Shown one piece after another: positions 22,602 through 63,510 of a DNA stretch of 64,000 nt. Each line of letters begins with the position of its first letter. Position 1 is the stretch's first letter. The position numbers and the translations under genes are program-made. The DNA is taken from the IMG/VR virus record IMGVR_UViG_3300045988_139474, positions 32,001-96,000 of that record; one strand, 5' to 3'. The notes beneath the pieces were generated by a model. The model saw nothing but the letters and a program-made list of their open reading frames with translations, was not told the DNA's origin and did not search any database. This stretch comes from a virus.

Positions 22602-22760
22602 GAATCTTGTAACGGTTGGGATTCCGTACATAAAGACAAGATTTTGACTAAAAATTTCCTTGCGAAAACAATCGACTATCCACGAAATATACGATTTCAA
22701 TGTCATAGATGTGATACACAATATACACACAAGTATTATATATCTAATAATTAATAAAAC
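22602..22760 (+). repeat. Promoter-bearing repeat module A
   Basis: GAATCTTGTAACGGTTGGGATTCCGTACATAAAGACAAGATTTTGACTAAAAATTTCC...CTATCCACGAAATATACGATTTCAATGTCATAGATGTGATACACAAT plus an A/T-rich tail. Reads on the plus strand. Confidence 0.8.
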
Positions 22761-23024
22761 AGACACTCACCCCAATATCCGTGAGACTGCTACAGCCATG
22801 AGAGTGAAATCAGTCATTCATCCTTCTGCTGAGTCTCTCTTCTTACAATCATGAGCCCAAGCAAGGATTCCTCCGACCGAAAACAAGCATACACTGAGAT
22901 TGAAACAAGGACTGTTCTGCTTGCGTTGTGATGATTGAGCAAGCTAGAACTGAAACCAGTCAAGCAGTCATGAATCTTGAGGCGTGAGCTACTGATTTGA
23001 AAACTGAAGCCTGTAGGGAACAGG

Positions 23025-23170
23025 AATCGGAACATAAATACAGGATTTTGGCTAAAAATTTCCCTGATTTATTAGAAACTTATCCACGAAATATACGATT
23101 TCAATGTCATAGATGTGATACAAATAGATAACACACAAGTATATATAGATTATAGAAAGAAAACAGACAC
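23025..23170 (+). repeat. Promoter-bearing repeat module B
   Basis: Same block as module A, with TTATCCACGAAATATACGATTTCAATGTCATAGATGTGATACAAAT. Extended -10 TGATACAAA at 23126-23134. Confidence 0.8.
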
Positions 23171-23310
23171 TGATATTCTTCTGCTGCACACTCACTCAAC
23201 TAAGGAATCAGACGGCCTAAAGACTGAAATCAATCATCATGAAAGATTCTTCTCAATCCTGCTGAAGCATGAAAACAGCCCTGCTGTGTTACCAGAGGGC
23301 TGATGTTTTC
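23141..23310 (+). ncRNA. Candidate ~170-nt non-coding transcript from module B
   Basis: Predicted start about 7 nt after the -10. It ends at the intrinsic terminator 23275-23310. The only ORF (23115-23303) starts inside the promoter and lacks an SD. Confidence 0.4.
23275..23310 (+). terminator. Plus-strand intrinsic terminator
   Basis: CAGCCCTgctgtgttaccagAGGGCTG followed by ATGTTTTCGG. It faces the 3' end of minus-strand gene 23445-23951. Confidence 0.6.
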
Positions 23311-23444
23311 GGCCTGATTAAAATTAAGCCAAAATTCCGCGAAAATTAGCTGGGTCGGGATTCTGCCCAAGTCGTTTACCATTCAAGGTCGCTAAAATCG
23401 AAACTAGACTGCTCTGCGCTTGAATACGGCTGTGAAGCTTAAAA

Positions 23445-23951
23445 TTAGCGACTTAAGAATTCTCTGCTGGAGGCCTGTTTGGCTTCGTCTAGCAACTTGT
23501 ACGCCAATTTTCGGCCTGCTGTACTAATGGCCAGCTTGACGGTCGGTGCGAGATTGGGTTCATATGCTCCGTCCATAGTCTTGATGTAGCAGATTCTGAA
23601 ATTCAACTGTTGATTAGCAGCTGTCTGTCTCAAGATACTTTCAAATGCTGGCGGGGTCATGATTTCATACACCGACAAGACGATTGACCGCAACAACTCT
23701 GCATTCGTCTCATCCAGCCGTACATTCAACAATTCCTGGGGCAACTGGATGTATCTGTCCAAGTCCAGCGGTCGGATACCGCAGGGGATGTTAATCAGAT
23801 TGCTTTCAGGCAACAGCTTGTTGTATTCCTCAATTGATGAAAACAGCTTGGCGGATAGCCTGTTCTGCCAATAGCGTGATGATTTCATGTAGTGCAGCTG
23901 CTCTTCTGAAAGCTCAGCCCATTGTTCCTTGACGGGTCTCAATAACGTCAT
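23445..23951 (-). CDS. Hypothetical protein (168 aa)
   Basis: 4-nt overlap coupling with the upstream gene. No motif recognised. Confidence 0.55.
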   Translation of the reverse strand: MTLLRPVKEQWAELSEEQLHYMKSSRYWQNRLSAKLFSSIEEYNKLLPESNLINIPCGIRPLDLDRYIQLPQELLNVRLDETNAELLRSIVLSVYEIMTPPAFESILRQTAANQQLNFRICYIKTMDGAYEPNLAPTVKLAISTAGRKLAYKLLDEAKQASSREFLSR

Positions 23952-24253
23952 GATTCCTCCCTCCCAAAATTGGGGTGACGCAATCTTCTTGGGACATTGT
24001 ATCTCGGAGCAAACTGAGGGTCACCAACAGCAACAGCCGTCCAGTATCCGTTGCGCTGAACTATCTGGTATTTGCAACCTAGCTCAACATCGCCAAATCG
24101 GCCAGCTAGAAACTCGAATAGCAACTGGTGAGCTTTAGTCATAGCTTGAGGTGTCGTAACGTTAGGAACAGCCGATATAGCCCGATAGCCGTCAAGTAGC
24201 TTGACTTCTGTATCGGGGTCTATCTCAACCGTCATAATCTCGTGAAACAGCAT
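23948..24253 (-). CDS. Hypothetical protein (101 aa)
   Basis: Start trimmed to ATG 24253 preceded by AAGGAG. The track start 24304 overlaps the small ORF below. Confidence 0.5.
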   Translation of the reverse strand: MLFHEIMTVEIDPDTEVKLLDGYRAISAVPNVTTPQAMTKAHQLLFEFLAGRFGDVELGCKYQIVQRNGYWTAVAVGDPQFAPRYNVPRRLRHPNFGREES

Positions 24254-24263
24254 GTACGACTCC

Positions 24264-24428
24264 TTACTGGCGGTTGTGTTGTTTCCATAGTGCAAACATA
24301 TCATCCCATGAACCTAATTCCATGAGCAATACGCTGAATTCAACTGGCTTACCGTCAATCAGGTACATGCCAGGACATGTTCTGTTCAGGTGTTCGTTGA
24401 ATTGGGTTGTTTGATTTGCGTTCATCAT
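24264..24428 (-). CDS. Small protein (54 aa), below the ORF-track size cutoff
   Basis: My translation gives MMNANQTTQFNEHLNRTCPGMYLIDGKPVEFSVLLMELGSWDDMFALWKQHNRQ. AGGAGG SD, and an ATGA overlap with the stop of 24425-24880. Confidence 0.5.
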   Translation of the reverse strand: MMNANQTTQFNEHLNRTCPGMYLIDGKPVEFSVLLMELGSWDDMFALWKQHNRQ

Positions 24429-24880: not shown

Positions 24881-24881
24881 T

Positions 24882-25148
24882 TCAGCCTCCTTTCGTCCAG
24901 TTATCCTGTTCTGGATGATATGGAATCTTTTTCCTGAGCGGGCCAGGGGCAGTAGGTTGAGTTGACTTACGCGGCAACTGCTTAACCACTAGGCCAAGAT
25001 GCTTCTGCATTTTATGCATCTGCTCATACAACTCGTCAATTTCCTGACGTTGCTCTCTTACTTGACGGCGCAAGCTTCTCAGCTCAATATCTATCGACTT
25101 CAGGTCAAATTCTAATTCTGACTGTTTCATCTTCAGCCTACCTTTCAA
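24882..25148 (-). CDS. Hypothetical coiled-coil/basic protein (88 aa)
   Basis: ATGA-type overlap with the upstream gene. No motif recognised. Confidence 0.5.
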   Translation of the reverse strand: MKGRLKMKQSELEFDLKSIDIELRSLRRQVREQRQEIDELYEQMHKMQKHLGLVVKQLPRKSTQPTAPGPLRKKIPYHPEQDNWTKGG

Positions 25149-26641: not shown

Positions 26642-26687
26642 AATTCATCACCTATCTGTCGGGTTGTAGGTTGTTATCTTTCAACAG

Positions 26688-26703
26688 CCAGTGGTAATTT
26701 TTA
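26688..26703 (-). promoter_or_regulatory. Class-2 intergenic motif
   Basis: Minus sense TAAAAATTACCACTGGCTGTTGAAAGATAACAACCTACAAC, 47 nt upstream of start 26641. Confidence 0.45.
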
Positions 26704-26979
26704 AATCAGTCGTTGTTGTCCTGCTTTCAAGTACCAAGTCAGTACTCCTGCAGACACGCAGAGGAAAGACTCAACGGCTCGTTGTTTTGAGAGTGTAGCG
26801 AAGTTAGCAGGGTCGCAGAACATGATTTCAGGCTCATCTGCCTCAGGGTATTTCAGCTTCACAAGAAACAAGTTATCCTCAAGTTCATGTTCAGAAAAGA
26901 CTTCAGTCATTTCAGGTAATGTTTGCTCAACCATCAATTGATGTTTGAAGCGTGGTAGCAGTGTATTGTTCATTCGCAT
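26701..26979 (-). CDS. Hypothetical protein (92 aa)
   Basis: ORF between two class-2 motifs. No motif recognised. Confidence 0.5.
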   Translation of the reverse strand: MRMNNTLLPRFKHQLMVEQTLPEMTEVFSEHELEDNLFLVKLKYPEADEPEIMFCDPANFATLSKQRAVESFLCVSAGVLTWYLKAGQQRLI

Positions 26980-27026
26980 GTTTGTTATTTCCTTGTCTGG
27001 TTATTCATGATTTATAGTCTCAGCAA

Positions 27027-27042
27027 CCAATTATAATTTTTA
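27027..27042 (-). promoter_or_regulatory. Class-2 intergenic motif
   Basis: Minus sense TAAAAATTATAATTGGTTGCTGAG, 48 nt upstream of start 26979, immediately after hairpin 27047-27062. Confidence 0.45.
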
Positions 27043-27198
27043 TCAGCCCTGTCAGCACAGGGTTCAGTCGGTCGGATAGCTGAGGATTGAGATTTCAGTT
27101 TCATGGCTGTTAGTCGATTAAGTGGTGATTGAGGTCTGATTGTGAGGGCTGAGGAATGATTGTTTTCCGTCTAGTTAATATAATATAGAACGTTGTAT
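27043..27198 (-). ncRNA. Candidate ~155-nt non-coding transcript from module C
   Basis: Runs from about 7 nt after the module C -10 (TACCAA, 27205-27210) to the CCCTGtgctgaCAGGG hairpin at 27047-27062. No ORF present. Confidence 0.35.
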
Positions 27199-27325
27199 TT
27201 GGGTTTGGTATCACATCTATGAGTTTGGAATTGGATATTTCGTTGATAACTCGTTGAAATAAAGCAGGAATTTTTAGCCAAAATCTTGGTTTTATGTACG
27301 GAATCCCAACTATTACAAGATTCAG
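27170..27325 (-). repeat. Promoter-bearing repeat module C (most diverged copy)
   Basis: Minus sense GAATCTTGTAATAGTTGGGATTCCGTACATAAAACCAAGATTTTGGCTAAAAATTCC...TTATCAACGAAATATCCAATTCCAAACTCATAGATGTGATACCAAAC. Confidence 0.7.
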
Positions 27326-27350
27326 TTTCCAATTCCTGCTATTGCGTTGC

Positions 27351-28256: not shown

Positions 28257-28640
28257 TTAAAAGTTGCTCTCGGTCGCTGCTAGGCCGTCTATTACGCGTT
28301 TGCGGTAAATCCTCATCACTCGGTCTTGAACAACGTCTCCGTGACAGGGATGAGGGCTACACCAGCAGAAAAGTCGGATATCATAGCCTTTCAGCAATTC
28401 TTCAACTAATCTACTGATAATCTTGTATTCTCTTGATTGGGTATCAGCCAGCTGCTTATCAAGATATTCAGCATACAAAGGGATACACTTGCCTCTTCCA
28501 TGTTCTTCAACAGTGAAAGGATTTCCTAAGCCTAATGCTTCATAAGGCGGTGTTGAGCCCCTTCCTATGTAATACTGTTTAACTTGAGGATTCTGGTCGT
28601 AGCTCATCTTGCGGATATTTTCAACTGTAATCCTGCTCAT
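28257..28640 (-). CDS. DUF4326-family protein
   Basis: YYIGRGS...LGNPF...Y..YL...RLFCWCSPHPCHGDV matches the DUF4326 pattern (Y.GR...GNPF...L.C.C.P..CHG.V). Confidence 0.7.
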   Translation of the reverse strand: MSRITVENIRKMSYDQNPQVKQYYIGRGSTPPYEALGLGNPFTVEEHGRGKCIPLYAEYLDKQLADTQSREYKIISRLVEELLKGYDIRLFCWCSPHPCHGDVVQDRVMRIYRKRVIDGLAATESNF

Positions 28641-28673
28641 ATTGTCCCTCCTTGAGTCTTGATATCTGTTCAG

Positions 28674-28689
28674 CCAATTCTAATTTTTC
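28674..28689 (-). promoter_or_regulatory. Class-2 intergenic motif
   Basis: Minus sense GAAAAATTAGAATTGGCTGAACAGATATCAAG, 34 nt upstream of start 28640. Confidence 0.45.
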
Positions 28690-29044
28690 AGTCAGTTCAG
28701 TCTCAGGTTTCGTGTTAACATGACTGATTGAGAGCTCAGTCAGCAGAAGGATGTATGATTGTTTTCATCTCTAGGCTGACCAATCATCAGTCAGCCAGAC
28801 GGTCTAAGCTAGGGATTTTCGGCTCATGACTGTTAGTTTCCTTGTTCTTCTGATTCTAGCCTGCTACTCACACACGCAGGCAGAACAGTCTCATGTTTTT
28901 CATTCTCATGGTTTGAGATTCTGTTTTCAATTTCATGATTTCAGCCTCATGGCTTGAGATTCTGTTTTCAATTTCATGATTTCAGTCTCATGGCTGTTTG
29001 TTAGATTGAGGATTTCTATGCATGACTGTTCTCAAGTCTCAAAG

Positions 29045-29210
29045 ATTAATTTATTAGTTATATAATACCTGTGGTGTTGATATTGTATCACATCTATGAC
29101 ATTGAAATCGTATATTTCGTGGATAACTCGTTGTAACTCAATAGAAATTTTTAGACAAAATCTTGGACTTATGTACGGAATCTTGGCGGGTACAGAATCT
29201 AGATTGCAGT
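29045..29210 (-). repeat. Promoter-bearing repeat module D
   Basis: Minus sense ...TTATCCACGAAATATACGATTTCAATGTCATAGATGTGATACAATATCAACACCACAGGTATTATATAAC. TACAAT at 29082-29087. Confidence 0.8.
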
Positions 29211-29424
29211 TTCTGTATCCCAGCAGCAAGATTCATCAGTCAATCATTGATTTCCCTCTAATTGCTCAAGCAAGGATTTCAGTTTGTTCCCTTCCTGCTG
29301 ACTCAGGCTCCATACGGTCGGAGAAAGCCTCAGCAGTCTCAAATTTCTGTTTTTCATGCTCATGGCTGTAAAGTCTCAATTCAGGGCTTGGTTGAGTGTT
29401 GAAGAGGGTGTCAGGGTTGTTATT

Positions 29425-29582
29425 CTTCTATTAGATAATATATAATCTGTGGTTGTGTATTTGTATCACATCTATGACATTGAAATCGTATATTTCGTGG
29501 ATAAGTTTCTAATAAATCAGGGGAATTTTTAGACAAAATCCTGTCTTTATGTTCCGATTCCCAGCCGTTACAAGATTCATAT
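29425..29582 (-). repeat. Promoter-bearing repeat module E
   Basis: Minus sense GAATCTTGTAACGGCTGGGAATCGGAACATAAAGACAGGATTTTGTCTAAAAATTCC...TTATCCACGAAATATACGATTTCAATGTCATAGATGTGATACAAAT. Confidence 0.8.
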
Positions 29583-29595
29583 TGCAAATCAGCAA

Positions 29596-29630
29596 TAAAA
29601 AAGCCCTGCTAGCATGAAACTAACAGGGCT
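29596..29630 (-). terminator. Intrinsic terminator after gene 29653-29943
   Basis: Minus sense AGCCCTGttagtttcatgctagCAGGGCT followed by TTTTTTATTG. Confidence 0.7.
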
Positions 29631-29652
29631 GGGGTTGGGGTATGACTGTAGG

Positions 29653-29943: not shown

Positions 29944-29959
29944 GCTTACGCTCCGTTGA

Positions 29960-35183: not shown

Positions 35184-35359
35184 TTCTTAGCTCGCAAACC
35201 CAGTTTCAAAGATTGAACGTCAGTGCCGTCTTCAGGCTTCTTGACTTTCTTCTCAGGGACACCAGGTGTTTTGTTATCCTTAGCACCCTTGTCCAAGACA
35301 ACGGATGCCTTGTTCATAGATTCGTCTGCACGAACCACTGCTTCTTGCAATTTACTCAT
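35180..35359 (-). CDS. Small Lys-rich protein (59 aa), below the ORF-track cutoff
   Basis: My translation gives MSKLQEAVVRADESMNKASVVLDKGAKDNKTPGVPEKKVKKPEDGTDVQSLKLGLRAKK. GAGGA SD, and an ATGA overlap with start 35183. Confidence 0.5.
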   Translation of the reverse strand: MSKLQEAVVRADESMNKASVVLDKGAKDNKTPGVPEKKVKKPEDGTDVQSLKLGLRAKK

Positions 35360-35433
35360 AAATTGTCCTCAGTTTAGTTTACAAATCAGGCGGTATTCCG
35401 CCGTTGTTGTAGCGTGATTGATAAGTGGCTATG

Positions 35434-35592
35434 CTATCCCTTAGCCTGCGTTGTAGCAGCTTTCGGTCTAGTCGATAGCTTGGAGGGCGTGTTACAGCCT
35501 CCGTTCTTCTCAATCACGCATGATTTACTCTTGGGAATGCCGTGCGCTTCTTGCAGTATCCCCAAGAGTGTTCTCAACCGTTCGATTTTCAT
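35434..35592 (-). CDS. Small protein (52 aa), below the ORF-track cutoff
   Basis: MKIERLRTLLGILQEAHGIPKSKSCVIEKNGGCNTPSKLSTRPKAATTQAKG. TGATG overlap with the preceding small ORF. Confidence 0.4.
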   Translation of the reverse strand: MKIERLRTLLGILQEAHGIPKSKSCVIEKNGGCNTPSKLSTRPKAATTQAKG

Positions 35593-35741
35593 CAATTGTA
35601 AGATTCTCCCTCAGCTGGCTTTGGTTTGAAGCCGTCTGGGATTTGAACTCGTTTCTTGACTACTTGAATCTCTGTCTCACCTGTATCAGGATTAACAACT
35701 TCAAGCTCTTCCAATCGCTCGGTTGTATTCGTGTTGTCCAT
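35592..35741 (-). CDS. Small acidic protein (49 aa), below the ORF-track cutoff
   Basis: MDNTNTTERLEELEVVNPDTGETEIQVVKKRVQIPDGFKPKPAEGESYN. AGGAG lies 9 nt upstream of ATG 35741. Confidence 0.4.
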   Translation of the reverse strand: MDNTNTTERLEELEVVNPDTGETEIQVVKKRVQIPDGFKPKPAEGESYN

Positions 35742-35787
35742 TTTCAATTCTCCTGCAGACGGCCTATTGCTAAGCCGTCCATCTCAA

Positions 35788-37953
35788 TCAGCCCTCGCAA
35801 GCGATACACTCACCTCTAGGGTTTGAGCCTCGTGTAAGTCGGGTGCTGCGTTGGTAATACAAGCCTTTGATGTTTGGATTTTCAAGGGCTTCTCTGGTCA
35901 CCTCTGAGATGTATTCCTCATCCTCGACAAAGAACAAGTTCAATGATTGGCCTTGACAGATGAACTTCTGACGCTGAGCAGCCAATCGGACTAATGCTGA
36001 TTGGTTGATTTCAAAAGCGGTCTTGAATACGGCCTTTTCTTCGTCAGTCAAGAAGTCCAGATGTTGAACTGAACCTTGATAGTTGTCGTTGATGTCTCGG
36101 ACAATATCATCATTGTACTTGTCGTATTTCTTCAGGACTTTGATGAACTCAGGATTGATACGCACCATGTTACCAGCAGCCGTGTTTTGGGTGAAAGTAT
36201 TAGAAACAAACGGCTCGATACCTTGACTAACACCACCGCAAAGTACAGCTGAGCTCATATTAGGCGCAATGGCTGTACGTGTTGAATTGCGGATTCCGTA
36301 TCCTTTGGTGACTTCACACTCGCCCAGGATTTCGGCTAACCATTGACTAGCTCGTAAGGTTTCATCATGAATCTTGCGGAAGATAGCCATGTTTTCAAAG
36401 CTTGCTTGCAAGGAATCAATTGGAATCATCTTGGATTGAAGATAGGTGTGGAAGCCTAAAGCACCCAAGCCCAAAGCGCGGTATTTCTCGGTGAATCGTG
36501 CAATCTTCTCAAGGCCAGGTGTTGTTTGCATCTGGATTAGGGAATGACTGCACACGCAATCAAGGAACACCAGTGACCAGAAGATTGTATCTTCATCAAA
36601 CTCATCCCACTTGGCTAAGTTCAAAGAGGATAACACGCAGCTAAAGGTTAGCTCCTCGCTTGCGGGCAAGGCGATTTCGGTGCAGTTGTGTACCAAGATG
36701 CCGTTGCAGGCATATTGACCTGGCGCAATATAGAAGTTGTGAACCTCATCAACGGTCAAGTCGTACACATCAACTTCACCCTCAAGATATTCAACATTGA
36801 CTACTTTGAGCCCGTGAGGCAGGTTGAATGCTTGTAACTCATAACCCAAAGAATCTTTCGCTTCAATCCATGTACCACGGAATGAGGCTAGTTGATGCTC
36901 AGGCGTACACTTGAATTTGTCGCCATTCTCAAGGGTTACTTCAACAACCTGCTTAGTACCTGTCTTGAACGCAACGGCCTCTCGAATGATAGGCTTACTC
37001 CAAGTATCAAACCCAATCAATTTGGTAAGTTGTTTTGAGCAATACACTAGGAATTTGACTGTACCGTTAGATTCTTTGGCTAACTGCTCAATAGCAACAG
37101 CATTTCTGCCGTCTGCTACTGCTACCAAAGTATCGCCTGTAAAGCAAAGGTTTGAGGCATAGACTTTCTCACCAGTCTGACGGATACACTCAGGCGCAAG
37201 TCGGTTAGCAACATCCGACTTCCAGATGTAGCCTTTACCAAAACGGCTGCGGGTGTACATCATCTCGGTATAACGGCGGATAGCCTCCGCATCACCTTGT
37301 CCTAGACGGTCAATGAATTCATCCGTGAAGTTGTAGCCAATATTGGCCTCACCTGGATTCTTGAGGACATAGTCATTCATCTCGTCAAAGTCACCATGGT
37401 CCATGTCGATATAGCCAGCCCAAGAACCACGGCGATTGTTGCCTTGGGATACTAATTGGGCGGTGCAAGTGAACATGTCGAATACTGGAACAACGCCATC
37501 AGCTTCGCCACCGACTGAGATTGGAGTGCCTCTCGGTCGAATATCCCCCAAGTAGGCTGATGTACCGTAGCCGTTCTTGCTCAATAACGCCATCTCACGC
37601 AAGGCTGAGTAGAAGCCGTCAATTGAATCTTCAATGTAGCTACCAGAGCAGCTGACTGAATGACCTCGATTGGTACCAGTGTTGCAATATACAGGTGTTG
37701 ACGGTGCAAGATGACCTTTCCACATGATATCAAAAAACTTCTGTTCAGCCGTCTCTTGATGCTCAAATGGGAGATATTTCGCTAGGGTCTTTGCAATCGT
37801 CTGAAAGCGTGAGCGGACAGTTTCGCCGTTGTAGGCATACTTATTGCGAAACATGATATAGCCCTGAGTAGTCATCCATTCAGGGATTTCATTTTGAGAT
37901 ATCAGTTGTTTGCGCTCAGCTGATAGCTCTTCGTAGGATTTTTTGTTGCTCAT
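35788..37953 (-). CDS. Class I ribonucleotide reductase alpha subunit, intein-containing (721 aa precursor, ~567 aa spliced)
   Basis: Extein junction ASNL/CTEIALP restores the SNLC.EI thiyl-radical loop. C-terminal redox pair ECIACEG. No ATP-cone. A beta subunit is encoded nearby. Confidence 0.85.
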   Translation of the reverse strand: MSNKKSYEELSAERKQLISQNEIPEWMTTQGYIMFRNKYAYNGETVRSRFQTIAKTLAKYLPFEHQETAEQKFFDIMWKGHLAPSTPVYCNTGTNRGHSVSCSGSYIEDSIDGFYSALREMALLSKNGYGTSAYLGDIRPRGTPISVGGEADGVVPVFDMFTCTAQLVSQGNNRRGSWAGYIDMDHGDFDEMNDYVLKNPGEANIGYNFTDEFIDRLGQGDAEAIRRYTEMMYTRSRFGKGYIWKSDVANRLAPECIRQTGEKVYASNLCFTGDTLVAVADGRNAVAIEQLAKESNGTVKFLVYCSKQLTKLIGFDTWSKPIIREAVAFKTGTKQVVEVTLENGDKFKCTPEHQLASFRGTWIEAKDSLGYELQAFNLPHGLKVVNVEYLEGEVDVYDLTVDEVHNFYIAPGQYACNGILVHNCTEIALPASEELTFSCVLSSLNLAKWDEFDEDTIFWSLVFLDCVCSHSLIQMQTTPGLEKIARFTEKYRALGLGALGFHTYLQSKMIPIDSLQASFENMAIFRKIHDETLRASQWLAEILGECEVTKGYGIRNSTRTAIAPNMSSAVLCGGVSQGIEPFVSNTFTQNTAAGNMVRINPEFIKVLKKYDKYNDDIVRDINDNYQGSVQHLDFLTDEEKAVFKTAFEINQSALVRLAAQRQKFICQGQSLNLFFVEDEEYISEVTREALENPNIKGLYYQRSTRLTRGSNPRGECIACEG
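36685..37146 (-). mobile_element. Mini-intein (154 aa, no homing-endonuclease domain) inside the RNR alpha gene
   Basis: Block A CFTGDTLVAV starts at TGC 37144-37146. Block B KCTPEHQL, block F VYDLTVDEVHNFY, block G GILVHN ends at AAC 36685-36687, followed by +1 Cys. Confidence 0.85.
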
Positions 37954-41211: not shown

Positions 41212-41248
41212 TATATTACAAAGCACCGTGAGATGAAAAAGCGCATTT
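41212..41248 (-). promoter_or_regulatory. Class-1 conserved promoter motif, copy d
   Basis: Minus sense AAATGCGCTTTTTCATCTCACGGTGCTTTGTAATATACG, upstream of RNR beta. Confidence 0.55.
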
Positions 41249-41273
41249 AACGCTAAAAATTTTTAAGCTTGGG

Positions 41274-44501: not shown

Positions 44502-45552
44502 TTTTCAATCCTGCTTGAATTTCTTGCTCTAAGAATTTGAACAGCAACCAATAATCTTGATAATTCTTGGCTGGGTCAGTGTAGCTGCGTTTAGCTTGGA
44601 AGCTTGAACGCTTTGTATGCTCAACAAAATCAGTCGGGTCAACGCCGATGGCCTTGAGATAGCGGATGACCGCAAAAATCGGCTCTTCAGTCGAATCAGC
44701 CATATTCAGATGAACAAATTTCATCTGGTCTTTGAGCTTCTCAGCCTGCTGACTGATACGCTTGAACGGAATAGTTGAATGGCGCTCGTTGTTGTTAAAG
44801 GCAGAATCGCCCTTAGCAACTTGGTAGCTTCTGTCCTTGAATCGCTCCAGCATTACGTCTTTGCTAGCGTGGCGGAAAGCTTCCAAGATATATCGGTCTT
44901 GGCCGTTGTCTTTCAGCTGATTCTCCAAGTCAAAGGTCGCAACCTCAAGGCCTGCATAGCCCTCAAACAACACGTTGTACTTCTTAGCATAACGATGTAG
45001 CATTTCAAACAAGGTACAGTGAGACAGGCCTGAGGTGATAGAATCCGCTCCAGTCAAGCTCAACAGACGTGATTTGTTTGACTTGACGATTTTCGCACCC
45101 AAAATCAGGAGATTCAAGGCAGGAATCAGGATACCAACATATTGGCGTGAGCGTGGGACATTCTGATTACCGACAAATTTGTCCTCAGGCTTTTCGGCCT
45201 TATGAAAATTGGGGATGTCGTCCTCAAACAACAGCTTCCATTGGTAGTTAGCAATCAAGTAGTCCAGCAGCATAGCCACTCGTGTACCCTTACCAGTCGC
45301 TGAGATACCCTTGAACTGGGCAAAGGAATAGGGACTGGCTGCGATTACAGTGTCTGTCGGCTCTTGGTCGGGCTTCAAGTAATTCGCAGGCGCAGGGATT
45401 TCGCCTTTCAATTTGACCTGATATTCCTCAGGGACTTTCACGGCGTGATCAGTCCATGGCTCATAAATCACTTCGCCAGCATAGCCAATACGGCGTAAGC
45501 TTTCTGGCCAATCCTCAGGATTGACCTTTTGGCCTTTCTTGTAATTCATCAT
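44494..45552 (-). CDS. Hypothetical protein with deviant P-loop, coupled to the hypermodification candidate
   Basis: GISATGKGT resembles Walker A but has G where S/T is expected. 8-nt overlap with the downstream gene and 4-nt overlap with the upstream gene. Confidence 0.3.
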   Translation of the reverse strand: MMNYKKGQKVNPEDWPESLRRIGYAGEVIYEPWTDHAVKVPEEYQVKLKGEIPAPANYLKPDQEPTDTVIAASPYSFAQFKGISATGKGTRVAMLLDYLIANYQWKLLFEDDIPNFHKAEKPEDKFVGNQNVPRSRQYVGILIPALNLLILGAKIVKSNKSRLLSLTGADSITSGLSHCTLFEMLHRYAKKYNVLFEGYAGLEVATFDLENQLKDNGQDRYILEAFRHASKDVMLERFKDRSYQVAKGDSAFNNNERHSTIPFKRISQQAEKLKDQMKFVHLNMADSTEEPIFAVIRYLKAIGVDPTDFVEHTKRSSFQAKRSYTDPAKNYQDYWLLFKFLEQEIQAGLKNG

Positions 45553-46691
45553 TTTGATTCCTCTTCAACATAAAAATCGAATACTGGTTGAATAGCTTTG
45601 CGTTGTTCCTTATCAGACAATCGCATGAAGTCGGTCGGTAGGTTGAACTCTTGGTACAGGTTACCAAATTCTGGATAATCGTCTTCAAGGTTCAAGACAC
45701 GGCCTGTCTTAACTCCCAATTTCTGCAGGATATGTGAAGACTTACACAGCCGAACTTTCGGGTGTTGATCAGTCTCCATGAATTCCAACGCAGCACTGTA
45801 GTCAACATCGGGGAACAACTCTTGCATCTTACACAACCACTCATAACAGTAAGTCGTATTATAGCCCATATATTCACCTCCTGAATAGCACAGGCGTTTA
45901 AACTCACACAACCAAGTTTCAAGGGTGTACTTGTTGTATTGCGGGTGAAAATCCGCTCCGAAAGCTTCCTCAATACGCTGGACTAATTCCTCTTCCAACG
46001 CCAAGACTTCCTCAGGGTCGTAGCTGCTGCGCTTCTGGCTTTCTTTGCCGCCGCCAGCAATTGGACGGTTGAATAAGAACAGTAAGCCATTACGCACTGA
46101 CCAGTTTTCAGGGCGGTCGGCCAATACGTTAGGAGGCATCATCTTGTACGGTGTCAAAGTATGGAGGGCTTGTTGGGTCACCCAGTTAGCCATACGGCCG
46201 AACTCAAGGAACTTGCTCAACTCGGCATAAGTGCGATGGTAGTTATCCTCAAGGCTGGCGTTGAAGTCGTAGAAACTGTTAATCCAGTCAGTCAAGGTTT
46301 CAAACGGCGCAATCGTCTCTTTGATTGAAGCAGCCATCAGGTGGGCTTTACCACGTTTCCACTTCATGTCTGAAGCCCAAGCCAGCTTGTACTTGTAAGC
46401 TGTCTGGAACTCTTCCAATTCTTTCAGGTCAATATCCTTGAAATTAGGGAATCGCCAATAGATAGCCCAAGCACCGATTTCTTCGTGGCAAAAGCCTTGC
46501 AATAGGCTGAACCATAGGGCTTGCTCAACCGTCATAGGCTCGCCAGTCGGCGATTTATCCGTGTCGCGGAAAGCTAGTGCAGTGCCTGGTTCATCAATAT
46601 CATTGTTATCAAGCTTCCATTTGTAAAGCTTGAGAAAGACATCCATCCGATTCTCAGGCTTGCGAATGTCTGTTATCAAAATTGTCGTCAT
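45549..46691 (-). CDS. Hypothetical protein (380 aa), first gene of the coupled three-gene cassette
   Basis: Start trimmed to ATG 46691 (GAGGA SD). No motif recognised. Driven by class-1 motif copy e. Confidence 0.55.
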   Translation of the reverse strand: MTTILITDIRKPENRMDVFLKLYKWKLDNNDIDEPGTALAFRDTDKSPTGEPMTVEQALWFSLLQGFCHEEIGAWAIYWRFPNFKDIDLKELEEFQTAYKYKLAWASDMKWKRGKAHLMAASIKETIAPFETLTDWINSFYDFNASLEDNYHRTYAELSKFLEFGRMANWVTQQALHTLTPYKMMPPNVLADRPENWSVRNGLLFLFNRPIAGGGKESQKRSSYDPEEVLALEEELVQRIEEAFGADFHPQYNKYTLETWLCEFKRLCYSGGEYMGYNTTYCYEWLCKMQELFPDVDYSAALEFMETDQHPKVRLCKSSHILQKLGVKTGRVLNLEDDYPEFGNLYQEFNLPTDFMRLSDKEQRKAIQPVFDFYVEEESK

Positions 46692-46707
46692 ATACAATCC
46701 TCAGGTG

Positions 46708-46749
46708 TTATATGGAATACAAAGAACGAAGAGGCCGAAAAGCGCATTT
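46708..46749 (-). promoter_or_regulatory. Class-1 conserved promoter motif, copy e
   Basis: Minus sense GAAATGCGCTTTTCGGCCTCTTCGTTCTTTGTATTCCATATAAC. Confidence 0.5.
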
Positions 46750-46798
46750 CAGACGAAAGAAATGCGGAGCGCAATATCAACTACACTCCGCACGGCCT

Positions 46799-55707: not shown

Positions 55708-55780
55708 TTTGTATTTCCTTGTGAAATATCAGGCTTTTATACGCAGCCTGTTAGCGTTTTGGGCGGTATTGCCCTGGGAT

Positions 55781-55820
55781 TCATAATACACAAAGAACGA
55801 AGAAACCGAAAAGCGCATAT
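55781..55820 (-). promoter_or_regulatory. Class-1 conserved promoter motif, copy f
   Basis: Minus sense ATATGCGCTTTTCGGTTTCTTCGTTCTTTGTGTATTATGA, about 70 nt upstream of the HU start. Confidence 0.55.
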
Positions 55821-55870
55821 TTCGGAAAATATTTTTAATTTTCGGCTAATTCTTTGTTTTATATCAAAAC

Positions 55871-58764: not shown

Positions 58765-60239
58765 ATGTCCTTAGTTTGTTGTGTTTTCAAGATGAAGTGG
58801 TCTTTCAACATCTGCATTTTATGCCTCATCTGACGGTTCATTACGCCGTTATGCTTATCATACAGCAAGGCGCATGTTAACTCGGTCGTCCTAGCTGCAC
58901 GGCCTACAGGCTGTACTAAGCCTTTGAACGATACGCTAGTGATGGGGATAACGCTGTTGATGTTAGGAATATCCAAGCCCTCAGTACCCACTTGGTTTGC
59001 TATCAACACTCTAAACGCTTTTTGTGCAGCCAAAGCTTTCAGCTGCTCCAATGTCATAGATACCTCGCCAACAGGCGATAACTGAACTTGGGCGGACAAA
59101 AAGACTGTCCGAATGCCCATAAGGTTCAAAGCATTACAGATAGCAGTACCAGTCTCAATTGAAGTCGTCTCAGGTATAAACACGATACCGTCTGGCATAT
59201 CCCCAATAATCCTAGCTAACGTCAATGGGAAGTTAGGGTGCTTCAGGGTACAAGCTCCGATGAACTGAGGTGTTGGAACATCTTTATCAAGGTTTTCGGC
59301 CACTACTTGCTCATACTCAGCCTTGCTGATAATTTCCGCATTGTAGCTTACCAAATTGATAGGCACTTGTAGCTTCACATGGATAAGAGATTCCCCGAAA
59401 TATTCCAGCATTGCGAAGTTTTGCTGAGTCAGCTGTTTTCTCAATACTAGGTCAGGTGTCACCTCATGTCCAGACTTAGCGTCAGCTGAGCCAGTGAAGC
59501 CATACAGGAAGTCTGGATTACACGCCTTGATAACCTGTTTCCAAGTATCAGCTGAGGCGTGGTGAGCCTCGTCAGCGATTAGAAGGCCGACATTCGACAA
59601 TTCATCCCAGCGTTCAGGCTTGGTAGCAGCTGACTTGACGAAGCCTGTTGGGTGAATCAATTTCACTCGGCTGGTATCAACGTCATACTGCTTCAATCGC
59701 AGTTCCAATTCCTTCAGCAGGTTCTTGGTAAATGAAATCAGCACAACGTCTTTGTCGTGCTGTTCCAAGTATGATTCTACCAGCGCGGAAATGATAGTTG
59801 CTTTACCATAACCAACAGCCAGAGACACAATGCCTGAACTCTTCTCTTTCAATAGCGCAGCCGTCTGTAACTGAACTTGGTCGTATCCCATGTCCTTCTT
59901 AGGATGAGACGCAAAGATGCCCAGCCAGCGTTGTGTTATCTCAATTCCTTTGTCGTCAGTCTTTTCACCAACAACCTTATAGGGCATGCCGTTAGCAGAC
60001 AACACATATTTCAGGGTGCTCAATAGGCCTTTGAAGACATACAGGCATTTATCCTTCAATCTGCTGTCGCGCTTGAGGTAAGCTACATCTTCATCTGCGA
60101 CAGTCCATTTCTTGAGGTGATACAGATACCGTCTGTTTTGTTCCCTCTGGGTGAATATACGCTCGAAGCTATTATATTCCCTGTCTGTCTCAAACTCGAT
60201 TCTAAGCTGGCCGTTTTTCAGACACTCAACTGTTATCAT
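58761..60239 (-). CDS. SF2 DEAH-box helicase (UvsW/RecG-like class)
   Basis: AVGYGKAT (deviant Walker A), LIADEAHHAS, and C-terminal helicase motifs GTEGLDIP and QPVGRAAR. Confidence 0.65.
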   Translation of the reverse strand: MITVECLKNGQLRIEFETDREYNSFERIFTQREQNRRYLYHLKKWTVADEDVAYLKRDSRLKDKCLYVFKGLLSTLKYVLSANGMPYKVVGEKTDDKGIEITQRWLGIFASHPKKDMGYDQVQLQTAALLKEKSSGIVSLAVGYGKATIISALVESYLEQHDKDVVLISFTKNLLKELELRLKQYDVDTSRVKLIHPTGFVKSAATKPERWDELSNVGLLIADEAHHASADTWKQVIKACNPDFLYGFTGSADAKSGHEVTPDLVLRKQLTQQNFAMLEYFGESLIHVKLQVPINLVSYNAEIISKAEYEQVVAENLDKDVPTPQFIGACTLKHPNFPLTLARIIGDMPDGIVFIPETTSIETGTAICNALNLMGIRTVFLSAQVQLSPVGEVSMTLEQLKALAAQKAFRVLIANQVGTEGLDIPNINSVIPITSVSFKGLVQPVGRAARTTELTCALLYDKHNGVMNRQMRHKMQMLKDHFILKTQQTKDI

Positions 60240-62080
60240 AGCATGTCTCCATATGTGATATCATACTTGTGTTCTCGGTTCTTCGTCAGGCTGCGAATCA
60301 GGCCTTTCTGTACCTTACCTTCAACGCGGAAACCATCATACTCATATGATGCGATTTTCAAGCCTTCGGCTCGTAAGCCCTCGATTGTATGATGGATGAA
60401 ATCCAATTCTTTGCCTTGGCAGTACCATACCAACAGTTTGCTATGAGAATTGAAGATTTCAGAATCCTCTGTAATCACACTTACACCGTTGAAATACATC
60501 TTCTTGCCTGTAAAGCCTGTTACAACTTGACCGTTTTCAAAGATAGCCTCTTGGATGAACTTAGCTCGTTGAGTCGGAGCATCTTGACCCCAAACACGTG
60601 TTCTGCGTTTGATGTAGTCAATTGCGTGAGTATGGATTGCTTCGGATACTCTGCCCCAGTAGTTCACGATACTGTCCCAAACTCTGTCGGCTTGTTCTGC
60701 GGAGTCAGTTGCTTCCCAGATGCGGGTGTAAACTGATGACGTGGCTTTATCTTCCAAGCTTGCGCCCATGAAGATTGCATTGGTACAGTCTTTAAACAAC
60801 TGATACTCCACACCGCACAAAGCTGCGATAACACGTTTGTCTTCCAAGTAGTCATCAATCAGCTCAGTTACTGTTCTGCCTCGTTGGTTGTCTTTAACAC
60901 TAACGAATTGGCCATTTTCATCAAACTTGCGTTTCACTTGATAGGCTCGGAAAGCGGTTTTTCTCAACAGCATTGGGTAGGCTGATTTCATGTCCACTTT
61001 GGTTGCTTTAGCAAACAGGTGAGATTTCAGACGGCCTTTGAGTAAGGTCACACTTGAATTGTAAACTCGTCCATAAGCAGTAACAGTCACATCGTCTGCG
61101 TTGAAGACTTGCAATTTGGTAACATCCGCCTTGACTTTAACAGTCAACGGATTCACTTTCAGACGTTTGATAGCATCAATATCGCCCAAGTTGATATCAG
61201 GAATGCTGTTATCAATCTCAATCTCAGTAAATTGGCCTAAGGCTTCTACCAATTCTTGTTGTTTTCTGAAGCCCTCAGCAGTCAGTACAACACCGTCTTT
61301 GATTTGGCTCAGATGGAACTCGGGTTTGCGGTTTGCATACTCAGTTTCCATATAAACAACTTCAAGATTGTTTGCTTTCCAGATAGCTTTTCGGCTTCTT
61401 GGAGATTCATACACGCGTAAGACTTCTTGAATTGCTTTCCACATGAACTCTACAGGCAGAGCAAGCGCAGCAGGCTTAGCCTCGAATTTCTTGTTGTAGC
61501 GTTCAGTCAAGATGTCTGCATAATATGGGCTGATATGGTCTTCAGCATAAGTGCCCAGGAACAGCGCCAATGAACCCGCAGCCCATTTACAATTGCGGGA
61601 TACCTCATCAGTCGGAGACTGACCGCGACCAGTCAGTACAACACCATCTTCGTCAATCAGGGTTGCACCGTTCAGGCCACCAGCTTGAGCTTGTTGGTTA
61701 GCTCGGTGACCGAAAGATACCAGCCAGTGTTCTTTGTCGAACTGGGCTTGAGTGATTACTCGTTTCAGGCCGTCTATCGTCAAATTGGCCAGGAGTACAG
61801 ACAGAGGTGTTTTTGAGTTCAATTTCAGGGTTTTCACACCTTGTTTGATTGCGGATTCAGGCGTGTCCGCATAAACAACTTGAAAATCTGTTCTTGTATC
61901 AATGTAGCCTTGGATTGTCTCACCCAGAGTCACTTTCACTCTACGCATTATCGATTGAGGTAGCATGTTAACCAAGTCAACAATGCTAAACGCAGTATTT
62001 TGAGCCGTTGCGTCGTCAGGTCGGGCGGTGACCTTTGCGGCTTTGAATTCAACATAATTGTTGTGTTTAGCGGTTGACAT
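60236..62080 (-). CDS. Hypothetical protein (614 aa)
   Basis: Long ORF. Only loose polymerase-like words were seen (see rejected list). Confidence 0.6.
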   Translation of the reverse strand: MSTAKHNNYVEFKAAKVTARPDDATAQNTAFSIVDLVNMLPQSIMRRVKVTLGETIQGYIDTRTDFQVVYADTPESAIKQGVKTLKLNSKTPLSVLLANLTIDGLKRVITQAQFDKEHWLVSFGHRANQQAQAGGLNGATLIDEDGVVLTGRGQSPTDEVSRNCKWAAGSLALFLGTYAEDHISPYYADILTERYNKKFEAKPAALALPVEFMWKAIQEVLRVYESPRSRKAIWKANNLEVVYMETEYANRKPEFHLSQIKDGVVLTAEGFRKQQELVEALGQFTEIEIDNSIPDINLGDIDAIKRLKVNPLTVKVKADVTKLQVFNADDVTVTAYGRVYNSSVTLLKGRLKSHLFAKATKVDMKSAYPMLLRKTAFRAYQVKRKFDENGQFVSVKDNQRGRTVTELIDDYLEDKRVIAALCGVEYQLFKDCTNAIFMGASLEDKATSSVYTRIWEATDSAEQADRVWDSIVNYWGRVSEAIHTHAIDYIKRRTRVWGQDAPTQRAKFIQEAIFENGQVVTGFTGKKMYFNGVSVITEDSEIFNSHSKLLVWYCQGKELDFIHHTIEGLRAEGLKIASYEYDGFRVEGKVQKGLIRSLTKNREHKYDITYGDML

Positions 62081-62250
62081 GATTGTCCTTTCACGATTGA
62101 GAGGTTATTATATCGAAATTTGCTAGCAAAATCGAATGTGCCTCGCCACTGGAATATTGTCTAAGCCAAGCTCCTAGACAAAATTGTAAGTCATTGATTC
62201 TGTTCAGAAGAAAGTTTCAGGCCTTTCGTCTTTCTTCTCGCTTGGGGTGT

Positions 62251-62290
62251 TCACAATACACAAAGAACGGTAGGATGTAAAAGCGCATTT
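62251..62290 (-). promoter_or_regulatory. Class-1 conserved promoter motif, copy g
   Basis: Minus sense AAATGCGCTTTTACATCCTACCGTTCTTTGTGTATTGTGA, about 165 nt upstream of start 62080. Confidence 0.55.
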
Positions 62291-62368
62291 TCTTTAAAAT
62301 AATTTCGACTTTTTCGATAACTCGTTGTTTTTACTAAGAAGAAAGTTTAAAATATTTTCGATTTTCTT

Positions 62369-62394
62369 TCCCTGCTGGGGATTAAGGTCAGGGA
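62369..62394 (-). other. CCCTG/CAGGG hairpin closing the module-F spacer
   Basis: Minus sense TCCCTGaccttaatccccagCAGGGA, immediately before the A/T-rich block of class-1 copy g. No U-tract. Confidence 0.35.
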
Positions 62395-62799
62395 TTGAGG
62401 GAAATTTCAAGCTTCAATCTTCAGGCCTCAAGCTTTCGGCTCGATTCCTCTTGTGATTGAGGGTTATACAGGCTCAAGCCTCGCTCAGGCAGAAGTTTCA
62501 TGTTTCAACAGGTTTGAGGAGGATTCATGACTGATTCCTTCTTATATTTCCACTCTTGCTTGACCACATAGCAGAGCCTTTCATGTTTCAAGTCTCATGT
62601 TTGATTGAGGTAGCAGGGTAATGAATGATTGTTTCATCTCTAGCCTGCTACACCACACAAGCAGGCAGACGGTTTAAGCTAGGATTTCACTCAACATCAG
62701 GGTTGAGAATTGAAGATTTCAGCCTCATGGCTTGAGATTTAGGATTCATGATTGTTGAGGGATTGAGAGGGTTTATGATTCATGTTTCAACACTCAATA

Positions 62800-62955
62800 G
62801 TAGATTATAAGATATATAATACCTGAGGTTGATATTGTATCACATCTATGACATTGAAATCGTATATTTCGTGACTAACTTCTTATTTTCGCAAGGGAAT
62901 TTTTAGCCAAAATCCTGTATTTATGTACGGAATCCCAATAGTTACAAGATTCAGC
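62800..62955 (-). repeat. Promoter-bearing repeat module F
   Basis: Minus sense GAATCTTGTAACTATTGGGATTCCGTACATAAATACAGGATTTTGGCTAAAAATTCC...GTCACGAAATATACGATTTCAATGTCATAGATGTGATACAATATCAACCTCAGGTATTATATATC. Confidence 0.8.
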
Positions 62956-63344
62956 ATTCAGCTTCTGTATCCCTGTCAACAGATTTCACCAGTGTTGATT
63001 GATTTCGCCTTTTAGCTTTCTATCCTCTGCTTGACACTCACCCAGACGGTCGGATTTCAGTCAGTCATTACTCATGCTTCAGCAGGGTTGAGTAGGATTC
63101 ATGATTGTTACCCCTTCTTCTGCTGACTCAGGCTACAGGCCGTCTAGTTTCATTGCTTCAGCAGTGTTGATAAAGACTGATTCTGTTCCATCTCTAGCTT
63201 GCTACGCTCACACGCAAGCAGAGGGTTTCTTATCTCATGTTTCAGCATCATGATTCTCAAATTTCACGATTTCATTCTCATGGCTGATTGAGGATTGAGA
63301 GTGAATGACTGATTCCTGTTCAACAGCAGATATTAAGTCGGTAT

Positions 63345-63510
63345 CGTTTTCTAATTTAATATATATATATATATAACCTGTAGTTTGTTATTGTATCACA
63401 TCTATGACATTGAAATCGTTTATTTCGTGGATAACTTCCTAATCCGCCAAAAGAATTTTTAGCCAAAATCCTGTATTTATGTTCCGATTCCTGTACCCGC
63501 CAAGACCAGC
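63345..63510 (-). repeat. Promoter-bearing repeat module G
   Basis: Minus sense ...GGAATCGGAACATAAATACAGGATTTTGGCTAAAAATTC...TTATCCACGAAATAAACGATTTCAATGTCATAGATGTGATACAATAACAAACTACAGGTTATATATATATATAT. Confidence 0.8.

Follow-up and report, generated by a model that had tools for sequence, protein, structure and literature searches.

A recurrent promoter-like cassette in a phage genome and a candidate family of non-coding RNAs downstream of it

Background

Repeated promoter cassettes and non-coding RNAs are each already known as kinds of phage element. The present analysis concerns a module of ~165 nt and the conserved stretches that follow it, further called tails, in 64,000 nt of the virus record IMGVR_UViG_3300045988_139474 (positions 32,001–96,000). 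This whole stretch is referred to as the window, and all coordinates are window-based. With what we regard as about an even chance of being right, we propose that the module is a portable, recombining promoter cassette, which would drive a paralogous family of stand-alone non-coding RNA genes.

Among the described systems, the closest to the module are the PeSL (promoter-early stem-loop) cassettes of the T4-type phages RB49 and phi1 (Arbiol et al. 2010, PMC2839356; PMC4122927). Both are repeats of at least ~100 bp that carry a sigma-70-like promoter, span stop-to-ATG spaces and occur in many copies, and both bear the marks expected of recombination between copies (in our case, swapped sub-blocks and copy-number changes). 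In contrast to PeSL, the module has an unrelated sequence, is longer (~165 bp) and lacks a −35 element. Its 5′ inverted repeat pairs in 86% of cells without covariation, and a stem-loop terminator is not proven for it. Furthermore, most module copies flank conserved non-coding tails rather than orphan open reading frames (ORFs), and some are antisense to the neighboring genes. By analogy, a recombining PeSL-like promoter cassette fits the module best.

As for other phage promoters, T7 A1-A2-A3 and T4 early promoters are strong promoters of the host polymerase, and the conservation of the T4 ones runs long upstream. They resemble the module in having tandem promoters with ORF-free DNA in between and conservation well beyond the −10 element. 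In the window, however, the tandem units are spaced by 380–560 nt and conserved motifs of the predicted RNA lie downstream, the copies are scattered in both orientations, and two of them (modules A and B) serve no gene. Regarding the tails, CsrB/RsmZ sponges are similar in that they combine several copies of one conserved-loop hairpin, unstructured linkers, a strong promoter and several paralogous genes per genome. The tail RNAs, in contrast, would be phage-encoded and have GU-rich loops (UGUGAKG).

Correia repeat-enclosed elements are ~100–155-bp intergenic Neisseria repeats, which can supply promoters and have a central IHF site. Many module copies likewise carry an IHF-like CAAnnnnTTA core. 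However, no terminal inverted repeats were seen in the module, the module core has 0 matches in 185,579 bacterial and archaeal genomes, and no sequence similarity to Correia elements extends beyond TTATCCAC.

Module copies in the window and in related contigs

According to a repeat search, a core-pattern search and a profile hidden Markov model (HMM), which agree with each other, the window contains exactly 7 copies of the module:

22591–22754, plus strand: module A, which ends in TGATACACAAT with an imperfect −10; found by core pattern, nhmmer (E = 8.7e-44) and alignment
22995–23158, plus strand: module B, with TACAAA at the −10 position; found by core pattern, nhmmer and alignment
27169–27334, minus strand: module C, the most diverged copy, with TACCAA at the −10 position; found by core pattern, nhmmer and alignment
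29046–29211, minus strand: module D, with TGATACAAT intact; found by core pattern, nhmmer and alignment
29426–29589, minus strand: module E, with TACAAA at the −10 position, directly after the terminator of the upstream gene; found by core pattern and nhmmer
62801–62963, minus strand: module F, with TGATACAAT intact; found by core pattern, nhmmer and alignment
63355–63513, minus strand: module G, with TGATACAAT intact; found by core pattern, nhmmer and alignment

The degenerate 36-nt core ACGAAATAnnCnATTnCAAnnTCATAGATGTGATAC, with at most 3 mismatches allowed, has 7 matches in the window versus 0 in 100 shuffles, and the nhmmer profile HMM built from the 7 copies returns the same 7 and no others (E values from 1e-40 to 1e-46). 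An earlier reading of this DNA, made from the letters alone (the sequence-only reading), had placed 7 copies in the window. Its coordinates agree with the present ones within ~10 nt, except for module B, which starts 30 nt earlier, and the module sequence it quoted is correct. Since all long ORFs of the window lie on the minus strand, except for a plus-strand gene that starts at 63734, modules C–G are co-directional with the genes, and modules A and B are antisense.

Related phages were represented by IMG/VR contigs from two metagenomes and by several assembled metagenome contigs, none of which is the window itself. The genes of the module-bearing contigs are 80–98% identical to those of the window. 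Counting copies across the window and related genomes, as the sequence-only reading had proposed, gives 80 profile hits, which correspond to 66 distinct copies (7 in the window and 59 in related contigs). At least 14 of the copies reside on a single 141.8-kb contig, ODNI01000015.1. Among 50,697 records of cultured phages, no nucleotide match to the repeat loci was found in either near or distant mode. Distant rIIB relatives (32–40% identity, 29–39% G+C) contain no comparable ORF-free units, and their repeats fall within ORFs.

The number of copies per locus ranges from 1 to at least 4 across the relatives. Thus, the A/B locus holds 2 copies in the window and 4 in contig L018, and the D/E locus holds 2 in the window and 1 each in contigs L028 and L033. 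According to the alignment, sub-blocks are exchanged among module copies, and those of module E are swapped in comparison with L018. We read the block swaps, along with the tandem copy-number variation, as recombination between copies. Judging by these comparisons, the module is an autonomous ~165-bp cassette able to sit in either orientation.

Promoter features of the module

The anatomy of the module was read from the alignment of the 66 distinct copies. Its weakly conserved 5′ end, TTGAAAnnTGAATC, is followed by an imperfect inverted repeat, the middle of which is replaced wholesale between copies, and then by the invariant ACATAA and CArGATTTTGnCTAAAAAT. Next come ~24 variable nt, which exist in a few discrete versions, often with the IHF-like CAAnnnnTTA, and the block TTAnnnACGAAATAnnCnATTnCAAnnTCATAGATGTGATA, whose last 14 nt are identical in 66/66 copies. 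The 3′ end consists of a TACAAT-like hexamer, a CACA box and 20–25 AT-rich nt, the AT-rich run being present in all copies. The conserved block pair reads ACGAAATA..TCATAGATGTGATA, where TCATAGATGTGATA is the invariant 14-mer (the invariant sequence is also written TCATAGATG). A GAAAT-N5-ATTTC inverted repeat is present in the module as well.

The extended −10 element TGnTAnnnT is found in 46 of the 66 distinct copies, and any TAnnnT hexamer in 54; regarding hexamer types, 44 are TACAAT and 6 are TATAAT. Indels of 1–2 nt shift the hexamer yet recreate TATAAT or TACAAT; together with the TGTG ahead of it, the hexamer conforms to the TRTGn extended −10. No −35 hexamer was detected, the sequence 17 bp upstream of the −10 being CGATTT or CAATTC; for the extended −10 promoter class the −35 hexamer is optional. 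In addition, ~110 bp of strongly conserved DNA lie upstream of the −10, and the invariant blocks within it probably bind accessory factors.

Based on the alignment, a candidate sigma-70-type extended −10 promoter (TRTGnTACAAT, no −35) fits the 3′ end of the module best. The promoter reading that had been made from the window alone thus gains comparative support, both from the 46/66 extended −10 elements and from a copy that stands before a gp25-like gene in two relatives. Namely, a solitary, tail-less module at 2339/2348–2516 of contig L031, as well as its orthologue in L006, exactly fills in sense a 170-bp stop-to-ATG gap between an upstream Phage_base_V (baseplate-spike) gene and the downstream gp25-like gene, whose ribosome-binding site (AAAGGAA or AAAGGAG) and ATG lie ~50 nt past the invariant block of the module.

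Not all details of the initial promoter description persist. The extended −10 had been given as TGnTACAAT; its general form TGnTAnnnT is the one kept in most copies, whereas within the window TGnTACAAT is intact only in modules D, F and G, and module A reads TACACAAT. The second sigma70-like promoter suggested upstream, TTGTAAC-N16-CATAAAT, is not conserved, and its TTGTAAC belongs to the block that is replaced wholesale in many copies. A downstream promoter GTGATA-N16-18-TATAAT, with the AT-rich run as its −10, was also rejected, its frequency (22/66 copies versus 15 in shuffles) being near chance.

Several other interpretations of the module itself were tried and dropped. As a structured RNA, it has an RNAalifold consensus energy of −1.7 kcal/mol and no compensatory pairs. 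In the 5′ inverted repeat, considered as a hairpin, columns 13–20 pair with columns 28–35 in 86% of cells with G-U allowed, versus 87% in shuffles, and the covariation is below the shuffle mean. A module-spanning ORF, which would encode a CxxC-like peptide, is open in the sense frame in 32/66 copies and broken in 34/66; the middle codon position is the most variable, and no periodicity is seen. Antisense module-spanning frames are open in at most 5/66 copies.

Conserved motifs of the tails

The 7 tails are paralogues, which match each other in the same motif order. Three motifs, denoted M1, M2 and M3, are distinguished below:

22755–22994, plus strand: tail A, with M1 (CCATGAGAGTGAAA) at 22796–22809, an M2 hairpin at 22909–22962 and no conserved frame
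23159–23311, plus strand: tail B, with an M3-like element (similar to tails F and G), ending at the hairpin 23271–23311
26980–27168, minus strand: tail C, with M1 at 27093–27106 and a terminal hairpin CCCTGTGCTGACAGGG, followed by the promoter-like motif AAAAATTATAATTGG before gene 26701–26979
28641–29045, minus strand: tail D, with three M1 (starts 28898, 28939 and 28980; span 28898–28993) and M2 at 28842–28891 and 28756–28806, followed by the promoter-like motif CTGAAAAATTAGAATTGG and then gene 28257–28640 on the minus strand
29212–29425, minus strand: tail E, with M1 at 29352–29365 and a 39-codon ORF
62330–62800, minus strand: tail F, with M1 at 62717–62730, M2 at 62626–62676, further M2-like hairpins and M3, followed by the promoter-like motif AAATGCGCTTTT..TGTGTATTGTGA at 62250–62315 and then gene 60236–62080 on the minus strand
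62964–63354, minus strand: tail G, with M1 at 63270–63283, M2 at 63178–63229 and M3

M1 is a linear motif, GCCATGAGnnTGAAATC (also written GCCAUGAGnnUGAAAUC and ACAGCCATGAGnnTGAAATC), which is present in 51/64 distinct units, 45–145 nt past the invariant block. Its 10 occurrences in the window are confined to the tails and to the strand of the module. M3 (TCATGAATCCTnCTCAAnCCTGyTGAAnCATGA) is common to tails B, F and G. The word CATGA occurs 28 times in the tails versus 3.8 expected (7-fold), and the palindrome TCATGA is in ~8-fold excess.

M2 is a hairpin composed of TCTGCYTGC, a GU-rich loop of 10–13 nt (TGTGAKG..) and GCARGCWAGA, often followed by GWTGAAAAC. M2-like hairpins occur 1–3 times per tail, ~95–108 nt apart. 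In 15 hand-collected copies, 4 pairs change on both sides. Searched with an M2 covariance model, 330 kb of sequence yield 63 copies at E < 0.01; of these, 5 fall in the window, all in tails and on the module strand. With 54 distinct copies aligned, 93% of cells are paired and both sides have changed in 49 cells; the resulting covariation score is reached by 0/500 shuffles, and slid controls collapse. Because all variants are Watson–Crick pairs, the M2 hairpin alone cannot tell RNA from DNA. RNA is indicated, however, by the strand specificity of the flanks and by the skewed base composition of the tails (A 31–38%, T 21–26%, G 15–23% and C 20–26% on the RNA strand).

The same composition bears on the suggestion of the sequence-only reading that the units are R-loop-type replication origins. 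In such a scheme, similar to T4 oriF/oriG, the T7 primary origin or ColE1, a promoter and an unwinding element would act together, and the transcript would form an R-loop or primer. In its favor are the run of 20–25 AT-rich bp past the −10 in every copy and the position of modules F and G, whose locus (62081–63733) separates the minus-strand gene block from the plus-strand gene, i.e. divergently transcribed blocks. Replication is also unusual in relatives of this phage group, since the polymerase of YerA41 needed no added primers when copying the genomic DNA of the phage (PMC9023294). The predicted RNA is, however, G-poor (15–23% G versus 20–26% C), which is unfavorable to stable R-loops, at least 14 copies are located on one 142-kb contig, in both orientations and including late operons, and the conserved M1, M2 and M3 far downstream would have no role. 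For these reasons R-loop origins are disfavored, and we rate them as very unlikely. As for gene orientation at the F/G locus, it flips there, and the plus-strand gene (63734–64000, 89 codons) is open to the window end.

Another possibility raised by M2 is that the tails are decoy RNAs mimicking CRISPR repeats (RNA anti-CRISPR or crRNA-like), with M2 and ..UGAAAAC as the handle. In many copies M2 is indeed followed by GAGWTGAAAAC, which resembles the ATTGAAAC ends of many class 1 CRISPR repeats, and M2 recurs 1–3 times per tail. Most CRISPR repeat hairpins, however, are not known to have loops as large as the 10–13 nt of M2, and the 3′ flank of M2 is not conserved in about half of the copies. 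A scan of bacterial genomes with the M2 pattern gives at least 120 matches; those listed are scattered, nearly always one to a locus, and include neither an array nor a Neisseria record. The best Rfam CRISPR-DR score (20.3 bits versus a gathering score of 37) is at chance level. A precedent exists in the solitary repeat units of phages, whose use with dedicated promoters is an established strategy (Camara-Wilpert et al. 2023, PMC10651486): like the units described here, RNA anti-CRISPRs are small, promoter-driven and non-coding and carry a repeat-like hairpin. The tails differ from them by the excessive length of the M2 loop, its variable flank and the lack of a matching CRISPR repeat in Rfam CRISPR-DR or among the bacterial-genome matches listed, so that we regard this mimicry as highly improbable.

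Tail D contains a 41-nt tandem repeat (28898–28979, minus strand), which carries M1 and has 2 full copies and a third M1; fewer copies are present in L018 and L019.

Coding potential of the tails and their surroundings

The loci 22300–23444, 26980–27350, 28641–29652 and 62081–63733 had been described as ORF-free, and they are indeed the main stretches of the window that contain no ORF of 60 aa or longer. The other large gap of the window, 35184–35787 (604 nt), holds two small ORFs with a putative ribosome-binding site before them, and was therefore rejected as a further unit.

Comparison of the copies confirms this status. The frames after the M1 ATG differ between copies and have stops anywhere from codon 6 on, and 1-nt indels after M1 shift the frame while the following nucleotides stay conserved. 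Indels at the orthologous D/E locus (36, 42–43, 12, 4 and 42 nt) are not kept to multiples of three, and the only sizeable tail ORF at this locus (39 codons, tail E) is broken in L019 by a TGG to TGA change. Recoding of TGA in the tails was dropped, because all neighboring genes are long ORFs in the standard code. As for constraint, L018 matches ~220 nt of tail E with 100% identity, versus 93–99% for the flanking genes. According to these comparisons, the tails are non-coding but constrained.

The same data were used to evaluate whether the tails encode very short peptides, for instance MRLKS from the M1 ATG or MNPxQxC in M3. The variation after the M1 ATG looks conservative (R/K, L/V/M, K, TCA/TCT/TCG), two M3 copies have a ribosome-binding-site-like AAGGA or GAAGGGG 8–9 nt before the ATG, and the gp25-like gene of L031 and L006 shares the ..CAGCCATG / CAGACATG context at its ATG. 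Moreover, since 41 = 3n−1, the tandem unit of tail D chains small ORFs by successive ATGA start-stop overlaps. On the other hand, M1 is not preceded by a ribosome-binding site, and the ORFs after it vary from 5 to over 14 codons with unrelated sequences. Combined with the frame-changing indels amid conserved nucleotides, the D/E indels and the TGA codon in L019, this makes a peptide-coding role extremely unlikely.

Regarding the surroundings, the statement that no gene follows any copy is valid for the first 190–470 nt, but tails C, D and F are then followed by co-directional genes with promoter-like motifs of their own, and in L031 and L006 a gene comes right after the module. Upstream of the genes that follow tails C and D stands a second promoter-like family, (C/T)TAAAAATTAnnnTTGG..ATATCA, which is also found before at least 8 other genes; for the gene after tail F it is a third one, AAATGCGCTTTT..TGTGTATTGTGA. 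Modules A and B, as pointed out earlier, fire toward the 3′ end of a convergent gene and away from every gene. Their units end at the hairpin 23271–23311, which has an A-run before and a U-run after it (−21.5 kcal/mol, z = −3.78, 0/200 shuffles as good) and reads as a predicted bidirectional intrinsic terminator. The conserved non-coding tails, the A/B terminator and the separate motifs before the genes after C, D and F all support the view that, within the window, the modules are not ordinary gene promoters.

Possible function and alternative explanations

If modules and tails form stand-alone RNA genes, each cassette in the window would drive a transcript of ~200–470 nt from a paralogous non-coding family, composed, in this order, of an AU-rich 5′ end, M1, 1–3 M2 hairpins (UCUGCYUGC, loop UGUGAKG, GCARGCWAGA) and UCAUGA-dense A-rich linkers. 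Such RNAs would be made in large amounts by the host RNA polymerase and may work in trans, as decoys or regulators that offer multiple sites to an RNA-binding factor of host or phage origin. The reasons for considering a decoy or regulator are the repeated conserved-loop hairpin, the unstructured linkers with a short palindrome, the many gene copies and the strong-looking promoter; a trans-acting sponge or regulatory role is thus a guess by analogy. In its most specific form, the proposal would be a class of phage RNA genes, at least 14 per genome and each with a promoter cassette dedicated to it, whose GU-loop hairpin arrays and UCAUGA linkers soak up a host factor while a thymidine-hypermodifying Neisseria phage infects the cell. 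We put this form forward as tentative and rather doubtful; as the factor, a protein with a role in defence, RNA decay or RNA chaperoning is conceivable, as is a protein of the phage itself.

Among the three roles listed by the sequence-only reading, a family of structured non-coding RNAs fits best, with the correction that the conserved 150 bp are upstream DNA without a conserved fold and that the tails are the RNA candidates. Early-promoter cassettes are compatible with the data as well, but solitary copies also occur inside late structural operons, in both orientations.

If the tails are transcribed, ~5% of the window, which represents a replication-gene region, together with at least 14 loci on the 142-kb contig, would be given to one RNA family. 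Such a commitment is large for a compact lytic genome and therefore implies a role that needs RNA in quantity. To our knowledge, few non-coding RNA families this large have been described in phages, and the RP13/YerA41-like group, with its hypermodified thymidine, has none on record; in the literature on the related phages YerA41, RP13 and Carin-5 no such repeats, motif combination or scale are described. The cassette would extend the PeSL idea of portable recombining promoters beyond T4-type phages and to non-coding cargo. The M2 hairpin and M1 provide defined baits for a binding partner, and the module is a candidate strong promoter for Neisseria genetics.

A number of results weigh against a promoter cassette that drives RNA genes. 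Both the promoter and the RNA are inferred from sequence, as are the start at the −10 and the use of the host polymerase. In 4 of the 7 window copies (A, B, C and E) the last −10 position is not T. The invariant 14-mer TCATAGATGTGATA occupies the sigma-70 spacer, which is normally free to vary, and therefore another recognition factor or a DNA-level role is possible. Folding of whole tails does not exceed that of shuffles (z = 0.35, −0.94 and −2.2). Neither a binding partner, nor a target, nor a known RNA family was found in the Rfam, window mRNA, GGA and CRISPR-DR checks. Further, a strict scan detects no intrinsic terminator between the units of a tandem pair (E–D and G–F), nor ahead of the gene that follows tail C, D or F, so some read-through into genes is likely. 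Finally, in two relatives (L003 7747–7918 and L025 3501–3672) a solitary module fills the whole gap between late tail genes in antisense; an antisense copy of this kind has an unknown ORF on one side and a gp19-like tail-tube gene on the other. Such copies agree with a promoter no better than with a DNA element that is mobile or works in either orientation.

In the checks for partners and targets, the only match of Rfam 15 over the window is one tRNA, and relaxed scans of the two largest loci yield chance-level matches (E of at least 0.6). Tails as antisense regulators of window mRNAs were rejected, the best E value (0.14) being no better than for shuffled tails. The same applies to pairing of the M2 loop with the CA-rich 5′ box of its own unit, where the mean longest run is 5.9 nt versus 6.15 nt in permuted units. 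A CsrA-type sponge was dropped too, because GGA occurs 22 times in the tails versus 26 expected and in 0/64 M2 loops.

The outcome of the terminator scan, as well as the direct position of the module before a gene in L031, favors an alternative in which the modules are tandem promoters for downstream genes, similar to T7 A1-A2-A3, and the tails are long leaders. M1 and M2 would then be cis-acting antitermination (put-like or nut-like), processing or stability signals. Modules C–G are co-directional with all genes, and M2 is a conserved hairpin downstream of a promoter, as boxB and put are. Module E also starts directly after the intrinsic terminator of the upstream gene (29602–29630, −20.6 kcal/mol, z = −7), and with such a strong terminator upstream read-through control could matter. 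In contrast, modules A and B face away from all genes, with a terminator at the end of their units, separate promoter-like motifs are found near the ribosome-binding sites of the genes after C, D and F, and the copies in L003 and L025 run antisense to the genes on either side. In addition, boxA (GCTCTTTAACAA-like, at most 2 mismatches) has 8 matches in the window versus 8.3 expected, with 0 in tails. Taking both sides into account, we find the leader explanation unlikely. Antitermination of the lambda N or rrn type (nut) was rejected in its own right, since no tail contains boxA, though the M2 hairpin exists.

The solitary copies, which exactly fill gaps in late operons in both orientations, also suggest that the module may be a selfish or structural DNA cassette (a recombination hotspot, a MITE-like element or a protein platform), for which the promoter is incidental and the tails are passengers. 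Sub-block swaps, the range from 1 to at least 4 copies per locus, and the resemblance of the invariant 14-mer and GAAAT-N5-ATTTC to protein-binding sites agree with this. However, neither terminal inverted repeats nor target duplications were seen at the module ends, the tails are constrained and have a strand-specific motif order and a covarying hairpin, and the −10-like hexamer is kept through indels. A purely DNA-level cassette therefore seems decidedly improbable in comparison with a promoter cassette for RNA genes.

Phage affiliation, host and neighboring features

The window appears to belong to an uncharacterised large lytic phage. Its gene content includes a family A DNA polymerase, helicases, an SbcCD-like nuclease, topoisomerase II, ribonucleotide reductase, rIIB and an EcoRI-type methyltransferase. 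A thymidine-hypermodification set is located at 43500–46697 and 11735–12928 and comprises a 5-hmdU DNA kinase helical domain, an HMUD2 kinase, an amino acid:DNA transferase and a thymidylate-synthase homologue. The closest polymerase is that of Ralstonia phage RP13, with only 34% identity. RP13 belongs with YerA41 and Carin-5 to a group whose thymidine is heavily modified (PMC12686479). According to the hypermodification set and the closest polymerase, the window therefore represents an RP13/YerA41-like phage.

As for the host, the Neisseria DNA uptake sequence (DUS) GCCGTCTGAA occurs 6 times in 64 kb (at 3441, 5360, 31627, 31942, 32489 and 61035) versus ~0.12 expected, and 17 of the 28 copies counted over all related loci follow an AG, which corresponds to the AG-DUS dialect. 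This excess and the dialect suggest a commensal Neisseria host, as an inference and not a demonstration. GATC has 9 sites (observed/expected 0.03), CCGG has 5 (0.04), and many 6-bp palindromes are missing; what looks like strong restriction-site avoidance exists despite the hypermodified DNA.

The two further promoter-like families are distributed as follows:

9244, 19631, 20467, 26704, 33443, 34373, 43184 and 50331, also 27040 and 28690, minus strand: second promoter-like family
12915–12980, 22336–22401, 22469–22534, 41217–41264, 46718–46758, 55780–55845 and 62250–62315, read on the minus strand: third promoter-like family

Members of the second family, (C/T)TAAAAATTAnnnTTGG-N8-10-ATATCAnCTTAT, are located 30–60 nt ahead of many ribosome-binding sites and have CTAAAAATT and CACGAAATA-like words in common with the module. 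This family does not fit sigma-70 spacing and therefore may depend on a phage factor. The third family, AAATGCGCTTTT-N14-20-TTTGTGTATTGTGA, is found upstream of genes, with two members in a row ahead of the methyltransferase gene; its TGCGCTTTT box bears some resemblance to the MotA box of T4 middle promoters.

Among individual genes, the large subunit of ribonucleotide reductase (35788–37953, minus strand) contains an intein (Intein_splicing and PT-HINT matches, residues 281–423). The EcoRI-type adenine methyltransferase gene (21346–22275, minus strand) is matched in Pfam with E = 1.7e-124; GAATTC is not avoided, having 15 sites. A single tRNA-Met (CAT) gene is located at 19858–19935 on the minus strand.

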